20,553 bases of DNA from Candidatus Bipolaricaulia bacterium (GCA_046758705.1 JBHIAT010000052.1:1-20553), one strand, 5' to 3'; positions 1 to 14,443 are shown, counted from the stretch's first letter. Numbers and translations: made by a program. Notes: generated by a model from the letters alone, not told the origin.

Positions 1-186
1 GTTGCAAAACTTGACCCGATAAGGAGGGGATTGTAACTTTACTTCAAGTCCAGCCACGCAAAACTGGACCGAAGCTTGCAAAACGTGACCCGACGAACAG
101 GGGATTGAAACTACGTCGTGTCCAGCGTGTAGTCGATCTGGAGCTGTACGTTGCAATGGGCGACCCGATGAAGAGGGGATAGCGAT
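1..186 (+). CRISPR. Degenerate CRISPR array fragment: 3 repeats of 37 nt (1-37, 75-111, 150-186) and 2 spacers (38-74, 37 nt; 112-149, 38 nt)
   Basis: Repeats are GTTGCAAAACTTGACCCGATAAGGAGGGGATTGTAAC, CTTGCAAAACGTGACCCGACGAACAGGGGATTGAAAC and GTTGCAATGGGCGACCCGATGAAGAGGGGATAGCGAT. Period is a regular 74-75 nt, and repeat 2 has the ATTGAAAC 3' end typical of class 1 repeats. No cas genes are in the window, and the array may continue beyond position 1. Confidence 0.85.
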
Positions 187-214
187 AGCCAAAGCCAAGC
201 CTAAAAGGAAGCCG

Positions 215-493
215 TTGCCCGACTTCGAGAAGATGAGTTTGGGAGAGATCGCCGAGTTTTGGGACACTCATGACTCAGCAGATTATTGGGACCAGATGGT
301 AGATGTGACCGATCAGATCCGCTTCAAGCGCCCCACCGATAAGATCGTATCAGTGCGGATCGCGGAAGAAGATCTCAAGCAGCTCAAGCAGATCGCACAC
401 GAGAAGGGGCTGGGACACACAACGCTCATCCGCACCTGGATCAAGGAGAGGCTGCACGAGTTGCAAGCGCAGAAAGGCGGACCATCAACGTAA
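215..493 (+). CDS. CopG/BrnA-like antitoxin (type II TA, C-terminal RHH), no cognate toxin adjacent
   Basis: EIAEFWDTHDSADYWD motif followed by an RHH-like VSVRI...LKQIA..KGLGHTTLIRTWIKERL. The frame extends upstream to ATA at 185 (AKAKPKRKPLP), so the start is uncertain (185, 215 or 233). Confidence 0.8.
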   Translation: MPDFEKMSLGEIAEFWDTHDSADYWDQMVDVTDQIRFKRPTDKIVSVRIAEEDLKQLKQIAHEKGLGHTTLIRTWIKERLHELQAQKGGPST

Positions 494-502
494 AGTCCAG
501 GG

Positions 503-539
503 CTTGCCGCGTCTGATCTGATAAATAGTGGATTGAAAG
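503..539 (+). CRISPR. Fourth, highly degenerate CRISPR-like repeat downstream of the antitoxin gene
   Basis: CTTGCCGCGTCTGATCTGATAAATAGTGGATTGAAAG aligns ungapped to repeat 1 at 23/37 positions. It has the same length and keeps the TTGC start and GGATTGAAA end. Confidence 0.6.
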
Positions 540-1291: not shown

Positions 1292-1981
1292 ATGCGACGC
1301 CAACAGCTGGCGCAGATGATCGATCACACCCTAATCGGTCCCGAGACCTCGGCCGATGGCATCCGCAGACTTTGTAAAGAAGCAATCCAATATGGGTTCG
1401 CCTCTGTCTTGGTCAACCCCCGCCATGTAGCATTGGCGGTGGAACAGGTCCGCGAGCATCCGATCAAGGTCGCGACCGTTATCGGGTTTCCTCAAGGGGC
1501 GAATGCCGCCGCAGTCAAGGCGTTCGAGGCGCGGATCGCACTCGATGACGGGGCTGAAGAGCTTGACATGGTCATCGACATCGCGGCCCTCAAGGCGATG
1601 GACTACCGGGCTGTTCTCAACGAAATCCACGCAGTTGGTGAGGTCCTGGAGAAGCGACCGGCGGGCGGTGTGCTGAAGGTCATCCTGGAGACGGCGTTGC
1701 TGAGCGACGAGCAGATCGTGGCCGGGTGCATCCTGGCGGTCGGCGCCGGGGCCGATCATGTCAAGACCTCGACCGGCTTCGGTCCGGGTGGGGCGACGGT
1801 CGAAGCGGTCCGGTTGATGCGAAAGACCGTCGGAACGGAGTTCGGTGTGACGGCGGCCGGGGGAATCCGAGACTACGAGACCGCCGTCCAGATGATCGAT
1901 GCAGGGGCGACCCGGATCGGGACGTCCTCGGGTGTTGAGATCATCGAGGGTGCACCCGAACCCGAATCGTCGAGCGGTTAA
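1292..1981 (+). CDS. deoC: Deoxyribose-phosphate aldolase homologue with atypical active site
   Basis: IDHTL, VIGFP.GA, GAEELDMV, LKVILET, VKTSTGF, AAGGIR and GATRIGTS motifs, with RBS GGAGGT. The second catalytic Lys position is Thr. Confidence 0.88.
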   Translation: MRRQQLAQMIDHTLIGPETSADGIRRLCKEAIQYGFASVLVNPRHVALAVEQVREHPIKVATVIGFPQGANAAAVKAFEARIALDDGAEELDMVIDIAALKAMDYRAVLNEIHAVGEVLEKRPAGGVLKVILETALLSDEQIVAGCILAVGAGADHVKTSTGFGPGGATVEAVRLMRKTVGTEFGVTAAGGIRDYETAVQMIDAGATRIGTSSGVEIIEGAPEPESSSG

Positions 1982-2189: not shown

Positions 2190-2226
2190 CTCTTGACCTC
2201 CCCAGAGAGATCTTCACTCGGCCGGT

Positions 2227-3351
2227 TCAAAGCTCTTTCCACGATATCCTCTGCAGGTCCGCATCGAAATCGATCCCCGTGAGCCCGATCTCCTCTAACC
2301 TGGCCGTCAGATTAGTATCATGGGTCACGGTCACATCCCCCTGCAGATCGACGCCGAACCCGACCAACACCCCGTAGATCTCGGGCGTTCCGCTTGACGC
2401 GATCTCGATCGCGCTCTCCGGCGCATAGATCGCCCCACGAATCTCGGCGGTCCCCCCGACGCTCACGTCGATGGTCACGCTCCCCGACCCTATGATGTAG
2501 ATGACCAGCGAACAGTTACCGGAGTCGGAGATGTCCATCGCATCGGCACAGCGGCCGAGCTCTGCGCTTCCTGAGAGTTCCATATCCCCGCTCACGAACA
2601 GCTGGACGTCTCCGTCGATGATGATCTCCTTGTTACCGGTTAAGTCGATCGCATCGTAGAGGTAGGTGGTCGCCGTGTCGGGATCGCCGTTGGTATCGGA
2701 AAGAGTGATTGTTGAGCTGAGGGTCTGACCGCTGTTATCGAAATCGTAGGAAGCAGGCTCGACGACCGGGGGGAGTGTCGACAACAGCCGGGTATCCCCG
2801 TTGATGGTGACATTGCCGGCCGTTTGGATTCCCCCGTCATAATCGGCAACGACCGCGTCCGAGAAGAACCGATCGGCAGCCGAGAAGGCTGCGAACATGA
2901 TCTCCTTCAGTATCCGCTCCGTCTGCCGAAACTCATTTCGGGAGAGGATATAGTAGACATCAGGCTCCAGCTCGACGACGAACACCTCAGCACCGCTCAC
3001 CTGATCGTCGAGGTCGGGGATGCCTTCGTTCGCCAACAGGTAGCCGGAGATCTGATACTCAGGGGGAACCCAATCTGGAGCGTTGACCTGCGCCGAAGTG
3101 AATTCGCCCTGTTGGGAGATGATGTACCCTTTAGCACGCTGGATACCGGATTCGGCGTTGTACAGGGTCTGTTCAAAGTCCTGTATCAGGGTGCTGTACC
3201 GCTGACTGTCAACAGAGATCTGCAGGTAGCCGTTGTTGACCAGCGTGATGATCAGCAGGGCGAATAAGGTGATGACCAGCACCGACCCTCGTTCGCCCCG
3301 TTGCCCGCTAAGATGCCTCCGTCTCAGCCCGTTCCACCCATGCATGTGCAT
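2227..3351 (-). CDS. PilX-like minor pilin / pilus assembly protein, copy A
   Basis: Basic leader, then ERG^SVLVITLFALLIITL class III signal without Glu5. PilX-N motif TLYNAESGIQRA, Gly/Asn/Thr-rich beta-repeat C-domain with GAIYAP, terminal WKEL, RBS GGAGGT. Confidence 0.8.
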   Translation of the reverse strand: MHMHGWNGLRRRHLSGQRGERGSVLVITLFALLIITLVNNGYLQISVDSQRYSTLIQDFEQTLYNAESGIQRAKGYIISQQGEFTSAQVNAPDWVPPEYQISGYLLANEGIPDLDDQVSGAEVFVVELEPDVYYILSRNEFRQTERILKEIMFAAFSAADRFFSDAVVADYDGGIQTAGNVTINGDTRLLSTLPPVVEPASYDFDNSGQTLSSTITLSDTNGDPDTATTYLYDAIDLTGNKEIIIDGDVQLFVSGDMELSGSAELGRCADAMDISDSGNCSLVIYIIGSGSVTIDVSVGGTAEIRGAIYAPESAIEIASSGTPEIYGVLVGFGVDLQGDVTVTHDTNLTARLEEIGLTGIDFDADLQRISWKEL

Positions 3352-3493
3352 AGCGCACCTCCATCAAGCGGTGTGGTCGCGCTGAAGCCCGTTCCAATTC
3401 AGCTTTAGGAGTCGAATCGGTCTGGGCCTGCAATAGTGGGTTGTACGGCTGACTTGTGAAGGCCTGACTGTGCTCAGAAGTTAAACTGTGCAT

Positions 3494-3584
3494 CGTCCTT
3501 CGGCAGCCCAGCCACCCTCGGCTTTACGTTAGGGCCTGTGGCTTTGTGCCCCTCCCTTTCGGAAGGTTTACCCGTTCAGGACCG
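3494..3584 (-). ncRNA. c-di-GMP-I (GEMM-I) riboswitch aptamer A3, gene-proximal
   Basis: Minus strand reads GTCCTGAACGGGTAAACCTTCCGAAAGGGAGGGGCACAAAGCCACAGGCC...GGTGGCTGGGCTGCCGAAGGAC. It shows a GAAA-capped P2, the CAAAG junction and P1 GTCC/GGAC. Confidence 0.85.
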
Positions 3585-3818: not shown

Positions 3819-3893
3819 CCCTAAAAGTCAAACCTTCATACTTGAACGGGCTAACTGAGTGGATCGCCTCGGAGAGATCTTCACTCGACTGAT

Positions 3894-5003
3894 TCACAGC
3901 TCTTTCCAATCGACCCGCTGCAGCTCCGGACCGAAATCGATCCCCACGAGCCCGATCTCCTCCAACCTGGCCACCAGAGCAGCTTCGTAGGTCACTGTCA
4001 CATTCCCCCGCAGATCATCGCTGAACCCGACCAACACCCCGTAGATCTCGGGCGTTCCACTCGAGGACACGATCGTGGTCTCCGGCGCATAGATCGCCCC
4101 ACGAACCTCGGAAGTCCCCCTGATGGTCACGGTCCCCAACCCCAGGACGTAAATGATCAGCGAACAGTTCCCGGAGTCGGAGATGTCCAACGCATCGACA
4201 CACCGGCCGATCCTCGCATTTCCTCCGATGGTCACATCCCCGTTCACGAACAGCTGGACGTCTCCGTTGACGATGACCTCGTCGTTGCCGCTTAAATTGA
4301 TCGCATCGTAGCGGTAGGTCGTCGGCCCGTTGGGATTGGTATCGGAGAGAGTGATTGTTGAGCTTGGGTTAAGGGTCTCGCCACTGTGATCCTCATCATA
4401 GGGGTTGGGCGCGGTGATTGGAGAGAGTTGCGGCAACAGCTGGGTAGTCCCGTTGATAGTGGTATTGCCGTTCGTTTGGATCCCTCCGTCATCATCGGCG
4501 ACGACGGCGTCCGAGAAGAACCGATCGGCAGCCGAGAAGACCGCGAACATGATCTCCTTCAGTATCCGCTCCGTCTTTCGAAACTCATTTCGGGAGAGGA
4601 TATAGTAGACATCAGGCTCCAGCTCGACGATGAACACCTCAGCACCGCCCACCTGATCGCCGAGGTCGGGGATGCCTTCGTTCGCCAACAGGTAACCGGA
4701 GATCTGATACTCGGGGGGAACCCAATCTGGAGCGTTGACCTGCGCCGAAGTGAATTCACCCTGTTGGGAGACGATGTACTCTTTGGCACGCTGGATACCG
4801 GATTCGGCGTTGTACAGGGTCTGTTCAAAGTCCTGCATCAGGGTGCTGTACCGCTGACTGTCAACAGAAATCTGCATATAGCCATTGCTGACCAAGGTGA
4901 TAATCAGCAGGGCGAATAAGGTGATGATCAGCACCGACCCTCGCTCGTCCCGTTGCCCGCTAAGATGCCTTCGCAACAGCCCGTTCCACCAATGCATGTA
5001 CAT
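3894..5003 (-). CDS. PilX-like minor pilin / pilus assembly protein, copy B
   Basis: Paralogue of 2227-3351. Start placed at ATG 5003 (MYMHWW) from the AGGAGGT RBS and alignment to copy A, rather than at 5102. Confidence 0.8.
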   Translation of the reverse strand: MYMHWWNGLLRRHLSGQRDERGSVLIITLFALLIITLVSNGYMQISVDSQRYSTLMQDFEQTLYNAESGIQRAKEYIVSQQGEFTSAQVNAPDWVPPEYQISGYLLANEGIPDLGDQVGGAEVFIVELEPDVYYILSRNEFRKTERILKEIMFAVFSAADRFFSDAVVADDDGGIQTNGNTTINGTTQLLPQLSPITAPNPYDEDHSGETLNPSSTITLSDTNPNGPTTYRYDAINLSGNDEVIVNGDVQLFVNGDVTIGGNARIGRCVDALDISDSGNCSLIIYVLGLGTVTIRGTSEVRGAIYAPETTIVSSSGTPEIYGVLVGFSDDLRGNVTVTYEAALVARLEEIGLVGIDFGPELQRVDWKEL

Positions 5004-5149
5004 CAGGCACCTCCTGAGATTCAGCGGTGTAGTTGTACAGAAGCCCGTTCCAATCGAGCTTTGGGAGTCGAATCGGTCTGGGCCTGCAATGGTGGGTTGC
5101 ACGGCTGGCCTGGGAAGACCTGAGTGTGCTCAGAAGTTAAACTGTGCAT

Positions 5150-5240
5150 CGTCCTTCGGCAGCCCAGCCACCCTCGGCTTTACGTTAGGGCCTGTGGCTT
5201 TGTGCCCCTCCCTTTCGGAAGGTTTACCCGTTCAGGACCG
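5150..5240 (-). ncRNA. c-di-GMP-I riboswitch aptamer B3, gene-proximal
   Basis: Same sequence as A3. Confidence 0.85.
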
Positions 5241-12530: not shown

Positions 12531-13160
12531 TCAGGAGAACCATTGCTGGAGCAGTCGGCATAATTTCTGGAATGCCCGATCTGAGCAACTTCTTAGACTC
12601 GCTCTCCGGGAAATTCCTCTATAAATGGAGGATGAACGAGGTATCCTCGCTTCTCTCAGAAGAGTCTCGAAAACCTCCTTAGGGCTAGGAGGTTTAATCC
12701 GTACAGGGGCCAAATAACCTTGCGCTCGCAGCCATTGAGACAATCTTTCCGGGGTCCAGCCGATCCTCCGACAAATGTGAGAAGGTTTAACACCCCAGAC
12801 CCAGGTCTCTAACTCAGGAGAGATCACGATAACACCTGCTTGATCTCTCCATCCTAGCCTCCATAGTTCTTCTTCGATATCATTCTCGATGTCTGTCGGA
12901 GTGTCTCTGTCCCTTCCTGAACCATGATGATCGAATATCAGGAGACAGTGGGTATAACTTTGAGATAGTTGCAGTTCTCGGGAAAATTCAATACCTCTAA
13001 AGCAGACTCCTGGATCCCGCTCCTGATGCCTAAAAGTTCGATAAGTAATACGGGCGATTCCTAAACTCTCCGGTCTTGATAGAATGGTATTGATCACCGT
13101 TTCGATGTCTAAATCCGGAACAATAATTGCCAGATCTGGCTTTTCGTGATCATTGGACAT
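12531..13160 (-). CDS. MAD4-like (methylation-associated defence system) TOPRIM-type protein
   Basis: DL.I.V.D, LSRPESLGI, H.ERDPG, FDHHGSG, I.PELETWVW, KP..PKE, PRSSSIY and C.D.AF.KL...LQQWF match my recollection of the MAD4/DUF4276-like family. Coupled to the ATPase by a TAATG overlap. Confidence 0.65.
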   Translation of the reverse strand: MSNDHEKPDLAIIVPDLDIETVINTILSRPESLGIARITYRTFRHQERDPGVCFRGIEFSRELQLSQSYTHCLLIFDHHGSGRDRDTPTDIENDIEEELWRLGWRDQAGVIVISPELETWVWGVKPSHICRRIGWTPERLSQWLRAQGYLAPVRIKPPSPKEVFETLLREARIPRSSSIYRGISRRASLRSCSDRAFQKLCRLLQQWFS

Positions 13161-14443
13161 TAATCCAGTACTCCTGAAGCATACAGCACACCCAGGTTCT
13201 TCTTACCTCTCCAGCCCTTCAGACCTGGATGTTGATTTCCACGGATGATCCGGCTATCTCCCTCCGCTCCCTTGCGAAAGCAGAGCACCTGATCTGGTTT
13301 CGCAACACTCAAAATCACAGGAGAGTGAGTTGCAACCAATATCTGGTTATCATAAGCGGAAGATAGTGACTGAAAGACCGTTTCTATCGCTTTAGGATGG
13401 ATCCCGTTTTCGGGTTCCTCGACCAAGAAAATACGCTCTTTCTCAGGAAGATAGGCCAGCAAAGTCAACGCCATCATCCGGAGTGTGCCGTCGGAGATGC
13501 TCCAGGAGGGCACCTTTAATCCGCTAGTGTAGGTAATGACGATATAGAGATGCTTGTCCTCAGGCCGTTCTTTAACGTTTACATTCTGGATGTCATAAAG
13601 TGATGTTTGAAGATGCTTCACCCACCGTTTGAATTGTTTAGGATCTTCTCTCTTGAGTTTCTTAATCACAATGGGTAAGTTGCTGCCGTCCGGCTCAAAT
13701 GTATCCGGGCTCAGGGGGGAGCATGGACGACGCATAGCTTCACTATTGAGTGCCAGGATATCTATTCCTTCCATGAGCAACTCCCTTGCCCAGGAGGAGA
13801 CAGGGAAACGCTCCTCTTCTGCCGGGACATTGGCCAGGGCCATCTTGCGAGGTCCTAGGCTAAACGGAGCGTTCCATCCGGTCGTTTCACTGATGAAATA
13901 ATCCTTCCCTGAAGAACTTACTTTATTGACCGTTTTTCGCCATCCTGGAGGGGTTCTTTGCCGATGAGGATAATCTTTTGGTAAAGTAGTCCCATTTTCG
14001 AACAGGTTTAACTGATTAAAGTCTTCTTGCCCTTGAGGAGTGAGTGTAGCCGGATCTTCTGGTTTGAGCCAGAGTGTTTCATCAATGATTTGAACTTTGC
14101 CAGTAGCCTCTTTACCGATCACAACCTCGTAGCGAAATCTTACGTATTCCCTGCCGAAATGCTTGAGTTTCATCAGATTCTTTAATCGTTCGGGCAACTC
14201 TACTTCGATAACCAGGGCAAACCATCTCCTTTTTCCTAACCAGGCTAGATCCGAGAAATTCTGTGCTCGTTTCTTAATTGCTTTATCGAGTCCCTCTTGT
14301 ACCAAGTCACCTAGTAAGCCTACCACATCAAGAAAAGTGCTCTTCCCAGATGCATTAGGACCTACAAGGATTTGGAAGTTATCCAGAGGGGTCCAGATGC
14401 GCTTTAAGCATTTGTATCCGTATGCCTCGATGAGACGGATCAT
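13160..14443 (-). CDS. AAA_21/ABC-type ATPase, MAD3-like
   Basis: Walker A GPNASGKS, signature ISDGT, Walker B LVEEPENGIHP and H-loop ATHSP. Strong RBS. Confidence 0.85.
   Translation of the reverse strand: MIRLIEAYGYKCLKRIWTPLDNFQILVGPNASGKSTFLDVVGLLGDLVQEGLDKAIKKRAQNFSDLAWLGKRRWFALVIEVELPERLKNLMKLKHFGREYVRFRYEVVIGKEATGKVQIIDETLWLKPEDPATLTPQGQEDFNQLNLFENGTTLPKDYPHRQRTPPGWRKTVNKVSSSGKDYFISETTGWNAPFSLGPRKMALANVPAEEERFPVSSWARELLMEGIDILALNSEAMRRPCSPLSPDTFEPDGSNLPIVIKKLKREDPKQFKRWVKHLQTSLYDIQNVNVKERPEDKHLYIVITYTSGLKVPSWSISDGTLRMMALTLLAYLPEKERIFLVEEPENGIHPKAIETVFQSLSSAYDNQILVATHSPVILSVAKPDQVLCFRKGAEGDSRIIRGNQHPGLKGWRGKKNLGVLYASGVLD

Follow-up and report, generated by a model that had tools for sequence, protein, structure and literature searches.

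The first 20,553 bases of contig C52 (the window) in the genome of a Candidatus Bipolaricaulia bacterium (GCA_046758705.1, JBHIAT010000052.1:1-20553) begin inside a CRISPR array, and an open reading frame (ORF) for a BrnA/CopG-type antitoxin lies between the last two repeat-derived sequences, designated R6 and R7. Probably, the trailer end of a small orphan CRISPR array on the chromosome has decayed here and recombined with a toxin-antitoxin (TA) locus of the brnT-brnA type; most likely, DNA rearrangement left the arrangement behind, and it is not a new regulatory device. Cas1-Cas2 did not acquire the R6-R7 interval as a spacer. The genome was assembled from a metagenome (3.7 Mb, 319 contigs, 93.9% complete, contamination 4.7%); its named relatives belong to Bipolaricaulota/Acetothermia, and the genomes used for comparison are related to it at the level of the same class only.

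The array is already under way at position 1 of the window, and its true start is on contig C115. The end of the reverse complement of C115 overlaps the start of the window by 55 nt (repeat R4 and 18 nt of spacer S4), and C115 contributes a unique leader of 530 nt and three identical repeats, R1-R3 (GTTGCAA...ATTGTTAC). The order along the array is leader, R1, S1, R2, S2, R3, S3, R4, S4, R5, S5, R6, 316 bp, and R7. Repeats R1-R6 are 37 nt each, the spacers S1-S5 measure 35-39 nt, and the start-to-start spacing is 72-76, the regular layout of a CRISPR array. On the + strand of the window, R4 (1-37) is identical to its C115 copy and matches R1-R3 at 36/37 positions; it is followed by S4 (38-74, 37 nt), R5 (75-111, a variant with the 3' end ATTGAAAC), S5 (112-149, 38 nt), the degenerate R6 (150-186), the 3' part of which runs into TA-derived sequence, and the relic repeat R7 (503-539). 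Identity to R4 drops along the array, from 36/37 in R1-R3 to 30/37 in R5, 26/37 in R6, and 23/37 in R7, and the 3' end of the repeat shifts stepwise from GTTAC (R1-R3) to GTAAC (R4), GAAAC (R5), and GAAAG (R7). R1 and R4 fold with paired termini (-9.8 kcal/mol, z=-2.45), and R6 (z=-0.6) and R7 (z=-0.3) are without this fold of the intact repeats. The leader contains a sigma-70-like site directed into the array, as judged from a consensus match only. Spacer S4 forms a 6-bp hairpin, GTCCAG-N10-CTGGAC (-10.3 kcal/mol, z=-3.63), and S5 carries TCCAG-N12-CTGGA.

An assembly chimera was ruled out. Contigs of 1687, 1700, and 1687 nt from three sequencing runs (X1-X3) cover positions 5-1300 unbroken and with 0 differences, including the ATA codon at which the antitoxin frame is discussed below. 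Because a single study produced all three runs, possibly from the source samples themselves, they rule out a mis-join without confirming the assembly independently. Contigs from a fourth run (X4) represent a related strain across 585-1300, and none was placed on 309-572. Short community contigs in runs X1-X4, at depths unlike that of the genome, also carry R1-type repeats with other spacers as well as R5-like (1-5 differences) and R6-like (4-5 differences over 36 nt) repeats that flank different spacers, the R5-like ones at low depth. Sister arrays or strain variants with R5-like and R6-like repeats exist at the site. Among the 183 other genomes of the class, a search with the repeat pattern at up to three mismatches (<=3) gave single scattered matches in four and no array. 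Two repeat cores had no match in viral contigs, and an Rfam scan of the sequences L026 and L016 returned nothing at E<=1.

An earlier note on this DNA, in which R6 was counted as the third repeat, had placed a fourth, degenerate repeat at 503-539, 9 nt past the antitoxin stop codon. That repeat, R7, is real, and its matrix score marks it as a true relic beyond chance. A log-odds matrix was built from the four distinct repeats (R1-R3, R4, R5, and R6), and the whole genome was scanned with it on both strands. R7 scores 16.6 bits; the eight positions that reach this value are seven array repeats and R7 itself, and none of the 7,373,858 other non-array positions does so. Without gaps, R7 agrees with R5 at 24/37 positions, a level attained or exceeded at only two other non-array sites in the genome. 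For R6, which matches R1, R4, and R5 at 26/37 each, no further non-array genome sequence reaches the same level. R6 and R7 agree with each other at 21/37, which is the lowest identity of all repeat pairs and on par with random genome sites.

It is highly improbable that R7 is a chance look-alike and that the antitoxin gene simply lies in ordinary flanking DNA past R6 as the last degenerate repeat. Such a reading could point to the identity of R7 to the intact repeat, only 22-23/37, to about ten unrelated genome sites that match R4 at 23/37, and to a local-alignment test in which the score of R7 was reached by 229 of 20,000 random 161-nt genome windows, a cruder measure that ignores the in-register match of both ends. 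However, R7 is the single best non-member site of the matrix in 7.37 million positions, lies 317 nt from R6 on the same strand, is in register at both ends (it begins with CTTGC and closes with GGATTGAAA, like R5), and has states in common with R5 that differ from those of R1-R4. No more relic repeats beyond chance were found in 540-700, where 15% to 66% of random windows score just as well.

The antitoxin ORF reported in the earlier note was recovered by family searches, and its coordinates were borne out: the repeat spans 150-186, GAGGGG lies at 173-178 and is followed by the six nucleotides ATAGCG and an in-frame ATA at 185 (ATA185), and the interval between the repeats (187-502) is 316 bp long. 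The product matches the profile PF12441 (CopG_antitoxin, E=7.3e-13) with 49.5 bits against a cut-off of 28 over profile positions 1-78 of 79, and the ORF was found again in a family search of the whole genome. It carries the EFWDTHDSADYWD motif and a C-terminal ribbon-helix-helix (RHH)-like part. No stop codon interrupts the frame between 89 and the TAA at 491-493, and its first ATG, GTG, or TTG is TTG215, which gives an ORF of 92 aa; a further alternative start is ATG233. We aligned the ORF with 19 homologues (57-79% alignment identity). ATA185 falls in the start-Met column of 18 of these 19, which identifies it as the ancestral start position, and the stretch AKAKPKRK that follows lines up with the Lys-rich N-termini of the homologues. 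The coding region of the family extends from 185 to 493 (+ strand) in the window, and begins with the non-canonical ATA, a poor initiator codon. Duplexes of the Shine-Dalgarno (SD) regions with a generic anti-SD sequence amount to -8.2 kcal/mol for ATA185 (5-nt spacing), -5.6 for TTG215, where AAGGAAG is the SD-like site, and -3.0 for ATG233; real genes nearby reach -12.8 and -13.4. The 9-nt gap AGTCCAGGG between the stop codon and R7 (494-502, + strand; read from the sequence) contains the 8-mer AAGTCCAG of spacer S4, which reappears at 493-500; related spacers or chance would both account for it.

The place where R6 meets the ORF resembles the end of a brnT gene. Positions 171-187 (+ strand) read AAG AGG GGA TAG CG ATA, which, by comparison with the homologous locus L042, corresponds to the last three codons and the stop of a brnT-like gene, a 2-nt gap, and the former start codon of the antitoxin. 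In L042 the sequence is AAG GGA GGA TAG CC ATG, and its BrnT ends in R-E-K-G-G-stop; the frame and the 2-nt spacing of the two loci are equal (KRG-TAG, CG, ATA in the window and KGG-TAG, CC, ATG in L042). In a second homologous locus, L032, AAG GGA GGA TAA is followed by GAA and then GTG. Over 16 nt the window agrees with L042 at 13/16 positions and with R1, in register, at 11/16 (manual count). There is no similarity to BrnT 5' of the AAG. The junction zone also overlaps the SD-like motif of the repeat itself: the intact repeat contains AAGGAGGGGAT, which is nearly identical to the brnT end that serves as the SD of the antitoxin gene in homologues. One further candidate for a conserved brnT end, AAGAGGGGAT upstream of the antitoxin gene of L031, was dropped because it belongs to a different ORF.

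No toxin gene is present at the locus, in agreement with the earlier note: the window has no similarity to BrnT in 1-700 (best E-value 0.6), and the ORF is not directly downstream of a BrnT (PF04365) gene in one operon. The accompanying claim, that BrnT normally precedes this family, holds only approximately. We searched 49 homologue loci from public genomes and metagenomes by tblastn with four BrnT queries and found BrnT immediately upstream in 20 of them. This is a lower bound, as the 3' end of brnT in L043 was missed by tblastn and is visible in the DNA alignment; some of the loci have almost no upstream sequence, two (L041 and L077) are apparently one record twice, and the set leaves out the genomic contexts of the closest homologues, P0002-P0007 (73-81% identity). 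Among the loci examined, the closest homologues stand right after brnT, and in L029, L042, and L043 the brnT 3' end is directly upstream, at the place taken by R6 in the window.

At three other loci the toxin has been lost and the antitoxin kept. Contig C97 of the same genome (E=1e-5) and the homologous loci L030 (E=8e-6) and L040 (E=5e-15) retain no more of brnT than its initial 25-45 codons, which are joined to the antitoxin region. These N-terminal remnants indicate that losing the toxin while keeping the antitoxin is a recurrent fate in the family. The antitoxin on C97 (841-1489, minus strand) is the best-scoring PF12441 copy in the genome and is preceded only by about 25 brnT codons; its ORF extends to 192 aa, past the usual end, and it is a second toxin-less copy in the genome. 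Complete pairs are present as well. On C167 and C146 the PF12441 copy comes after a BrnT-like gene, C3 has a short antitoxin behind a BrnT, and C261 has a BrnT paired with a PF14384 BrnA. The orphan BrnT-type toxin that the earlier note had proposed to look for was not found in the genome, where each of the four BrnT matches (C261, C167, C3, and C146) is immediately followed by an antitoxin-like gene.

As an alternative to its own model, the earlier note had offered a deletion scar by which the array became connected to what is left of a TA locus, and this is supported by the alignment of ATA185 with the start-Met column, by the L042-like junction, and by the recurrent loss of the toxin. The array consists of intact repeats (R1-R4) followed by R5, R6, and R7, which are progressively degenerate toward the trailer, and in this scenario a TA cassette would once have been located within or between old repeat units. 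Illegitimate recombination or deletion would then have fused a repeat with the final few brnT codons, probably via the SD-like motif shared by the two partners (AAGGAGGGGAT in the repeat and AAGGGAGGAT at the brnT 3' end). The event would have removed the toxin gene, the TA promoter, and anything between, and the antitoxin ORF survives intact save for its start codon, now ATA. Any expression of the ORF would depend on transcripts that read through from the array leader and on weak initiation at ATA185 or TTG215. The analysis shows the anatomy of the locus, its homology, the missing toxin, and toxin loss at other loci; the microhomology mechanism, this order of events, and a low or absent expression are inferred.

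Several observations weigh against the scar origin. The antitoxin ORF shows no visible decay: neither a frameshift nor a premature stop interrupts it, and it differs at 4 of 46 conserved columns (M1I, E44V, V50I, and K94R, alignment numbering), within the range of 0-6 among the homologues. A moderate SD is correctly spaced from ATA185. The junction is not exactly placeable, with a breakpoint somewhere in 171-187, and R6 could be a complete repeat of a sister variant, given that an R6-like community repeat flanks another spacer; the resemblance to brnT might then be coincidental, both sequences being SD-like. The protein of L042, the locus used for comparison, has only 67% identity. No trace explains how the TA cassette came to lie upstream of R7: the sequence shows neither a transposase nor a terminal inverted repeat nor a target duplication. 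The nearest comparison genomes are of the same class only, and in these the mazEF and deoC homologues are non-syntenic and without an array. An 'array' flagged in L035 is a 75-nt tandem repeat and not CRISPR. The intact ORF fits either a recent event or continued selection.

With a well-preserved ORF, a suitably spaced SD of moderate strength, and no terminator-like site between array and gene, the antitoxin may still be expressed by read-through and act in trans. It is conceivable, though rather unlikely, that the locus originated as the same scar but that the antitoxin has been kept and is used, being transcribed by read-through from the leader, translated from ATA185 with a repeat-borne or hybrid SD or from TTG215, and acting in trans as an anti-addiction or buffering protein on BrnT toxins that paralogous loci encode or that mobile elements bring in. 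Orphan antitoxins left behind by toxin loss are known, as is the concept of anti-addiction. The ORF is intact with its family-conserved residues retained, SD-like pairing precedes both ATA185 and TTG215 at the energies given above, the gene is on the strand of the array, and a pattern search of 1-1400 found no terminator-like site on the + strand. Orphan PF12441 genes are also common, as 29 of the 49 homologue loci have no BrnT detectable upstream by tblastn, some of them with too little upstream sequence. A candidate target would be the BrnT located inside the cas locus on C3, the own antitoxin of which is short, lacks the RHH part, and is missed by the PF12441 model. On the other hand, the native promoter and the ATG are gone, and the antitoxin of the window is only distantly similar to the paralogous antitoxins. 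Furthermore, since all four BrnT matches have an antitoxin-like gene of their own, no toxin clearly needs the one in the window. A bolder form of this idea, in which the orphan array has been co-opted as an expression platform, so that the leader transcript and a repeat-derived SD would drive low-level non-ATG translation of the toxin-less BrnA-type antitoxin and thereby buffer BrnT elsewhere, notably that of the C3 cas locus, is very unlikely.

TA genes are common cargo of mobile elements, and a brnTA-carrying element could have inserted into the array, in the manner of insertion sequences (IS) or Tn7-like elements, and then have been almost wholly deleted with only the antitoxin left. Tn7-like elements that target arrays are described by Chacon Machado and Peters (2025), and an IS-type tnpB gene with a second genomic copy is found just upstream of the leader. 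The tnpB element is on the opposite side of the array, however, and no transposase or integrase gene, inverted terminal repeats, or target-site duplication was found flanking 187-502. As an account of its own this is unlikely, but such an insertion is compatible with the scar reading as a possible first step.

The model put forward in the earlier note, in which the antitoxin gene is a giant spacer within the precursor CRISPR RNA, is scarcely credible. According to this model, Cas6 would cut R6 and R7 and free a defined mRNA, so that the supply of antitoxin would report CRISPR processing as an addiction module or anti-CRISPR sensor. The gene is indeed bracketed by two repeat-derived sequences in the orientation of the array, a Cas6 gene is present in the genome, and CRISPR-controlled TA modules (CreTA and CreP) are known. 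However, the cognate toxin was not found, R6 and R7 are the two most degenerate repeats (21/37 mutual identity, without the R1/R4 fold), and the single Cas6 match of the genome is located on C3 beside arrays of an unrelated 30-nt repeat. Cas6 canonically cuts 8 nt from the 3' end of the repeat, which in R6 would fall at 178/179 and part GAGGGG from ATA. The two proposals that the ribosome binding site lies in the repeat and that the repeat is cut by Cas6 are therefore in conflict, because the cut would strip the SD from the ORF.

The interval itself is unlike a spacer. It measures 316 bp against 35-39 bp in the real spacers, and R6 and R7 do not look like a pair from one integration event, because such repeats would have started out identical and these two agree at only 21/37. 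No cas genes flank the array: on the C115 side there are housekeeping genes and the IS-type tnpB, and downstream there are TA genes, deoC, and ordinary genes. The repeat-gene-repeat layout, the recurrence of which the earlier note had proposed to examine, was seen in none of the 49 homologue loci, none of which has an adjoining array or a repeat match above 22/37, and the repeat family does not occur as an array in any of the 183 other genomes of the class. Together, the missing recurrence, the degeneracy of R6 and R7, the lack of adjoining cas genes, and the association of Cas6 with different 30-nt repeats leave the proposed coupling of the antitoxin to Cas6 processing, as an addiction module or an anti-CRISPR sensor, without support.

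The locus resembles several known systems in part. Like the type II BrnT/BrnA modules (PF04365 with PF12441 or PF14384), it has the PF12441 profile, EFWDTHDSADYWD, and the RHH-like C-terminus, whereas it is without a toxin gene, a TA promoter, and a canonical start, and its upstream neighbour is a CRISPR repeat. The orphan antitoxins of C97, L030, and L040 have likewise lost the toxin and kept the antitoxin, but they retain the 5' end of the toxin gene and presumably its promoter; at the window locus the whole toxin gene is lost and an array lies upstream. In CreTA, a pair of repeat-like sequences encloses a spacer of about 30 bp, and the RNA guides the effector to repress the promoter of the toxin. 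The CRISPR-repressed toxin modules of this kind (CreTA/CreP) employ a spacer-sized mini-array together with a toxin. They share with the window a TA-related gene physically tied to repeat-like sequences, but the window is not CreTA-like in that it has no toxin, encloses a protein antitoxin gene (316 bp, coding), and has no effector genes nearby. Repeat-like sequences that stand alone or have degenerated are frequent in the vicinity of arrays, and Shmakov et al. (2023) ascribe them to the recombinogenic nature of repeats. The decay toward the trailer and the isolated R7 beyond the regular array are similar to the elements covered there, from which the R6-R7 interval differs in being 316 bp of protein-coding sequence without target complementarity. 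Arrays interrupted by IS or by array-targeting Tn7-like elements (the latter in Chacon Machado and Peters 2025) also have non-spacer DNA between repeats, but the window contains one short gene only and neither transposition genes nor element ends that would mark an inserted mobile element.

A protein antitoxin gene between CRISPR repeats was not reported anywhere in the open-access literature searched, and the exact repeat-antitoxin-repeat layout may be undescribed. The decay of the array and the erosion of the TA locus most plausibly produced it as a by-product, which makes it a further example of processes already known. Should the scar reading be right, the locus is a clean natural example of CRISPR repeats taking part in illegitimate recombination, with the junction in an SD-like motif common to the repeat and the end of the toxin gene, and shows that TA loci may lose the toxin while the antitoxin persists. 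It would be useful for the annotation of array ends and orphan antitoxins and is not a new mechanism. If the antitoxin were expressed from the array transcript and acted on the BrnT of the cas locus, this would be a new kind of link from CRISPR transcription to the control of a toxin.

The genome has a single match each for cas1 and cas6, both on C3 together with arrays of 30-nt repeats. At 30691-35714 and 55406-55702 of this contig are cas4-like and cas1 genes followed by a 17-repeat array of the 30-nt repeat CTTCTAATCGAACCAAGATGGTATTGAAAC. The last repeat of this array is 57 nt from a convergent brnT and an antitoxin gene that is C-terminally shortened and lacks the RHH half, suggesting that the C3 BrnT might be a toxin with possibly incomplete regulation. 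The brnT/antitoxin pair is situated between cas1 and cas6, and beyond cas6 there are further large cas-like ORFs. Array ends abutting clipped BrnTA-type genes thus occur twice in the genome, in the window and on C3. A second array on C3, with a near-identical repeat, runs off the end of the contig.

Upstream of the orphan array, C115 contains housekeeping ORFs of the trp/aro type, a mutY-like gene, and a gene of the TnpB family encoding 563 aa (reverse complement of C115, 9426-11117; L026:807-2498, minus strand), at a distance of some 530 nt from R1. The TnpB protein matches PF07282 (E=3.7e-13) and scores 91.8 bits with the NCBIfam model guided_TnpB, under the cut-off of 100, and far under Cas12f2. 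Its named homologues are labelled transposases, and a second, internally shortened tnpB copy on C90, with upstream DNA 86% identical, is distant from any array. We rejected the possibility of a type V (Cas12f-like) array, since the neighbouring tnpB-like gene is an IS copy and its Cas12f2 score is far too low.

Downstream of the array is a separate, complete TA pair consisting of a CopG-family, MazE-like RHH antitoxin gene (698-961, + strand; PF01402, E=3.3e-6; strong SD, -12.8 kcal/mol) and an overlapping gene for a PemK/MazF-like toxin (949-1272, + strand; PF02452, E=9.5e-16). The pair is preceded by a sigma-70-like promoter match, TTGACC-17-TATACT (626-654, + strand; 10/12 matches, by consensus only), and followed by deoC and then by chromosomal genes of ordinary kinds. 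Immediately 3' of R7 (541-556) stands a perfect 16-nt palindrome, TATCGACATGTCGATA, about 70 nt upstream of the promoter-like site, and could be an operator. A terminator after R7 was rejected, as 494-585 folds no better than its shuffles (z=0.76) and has no terminator pattern on the + strand. The R6-R7 antitoxin gene and the RHH gene have a 15-nt inverted match (93%) at 370-384 and 771-785 (AGATCTCAAGCAGCT and AGCAGCTTGAGATCT), which lies in sequence coding for an RHH-type helix in both genes and is probably due to chance.

A 299-nt fragment on C268 (1545-1843) is 93% identical to the 3' third of deoC (window 1662-1960) in an unrelated context, and may be a duplicated fragment or belong to a second-strain contig; C268 holds only this deoC fragment and was rejected as a second-strain version of the locus. 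Two tandem DUF7305 genes on the minus strand of the window (2205-3500 and 3872-5156) are 85% identical to each other. The family is expanded in this genome, with copies of 68-82% identity on at least seven other contigs (C82, C48, C271, C68, C145, C190, and C97). Further downstream, at 13160-14443 on the minus strand, a gene for a 427-aa AAA_21 ATPase (PF13304, E=8e-29) of the AbiEii/OLD-like defence type is located among metabolic genes.

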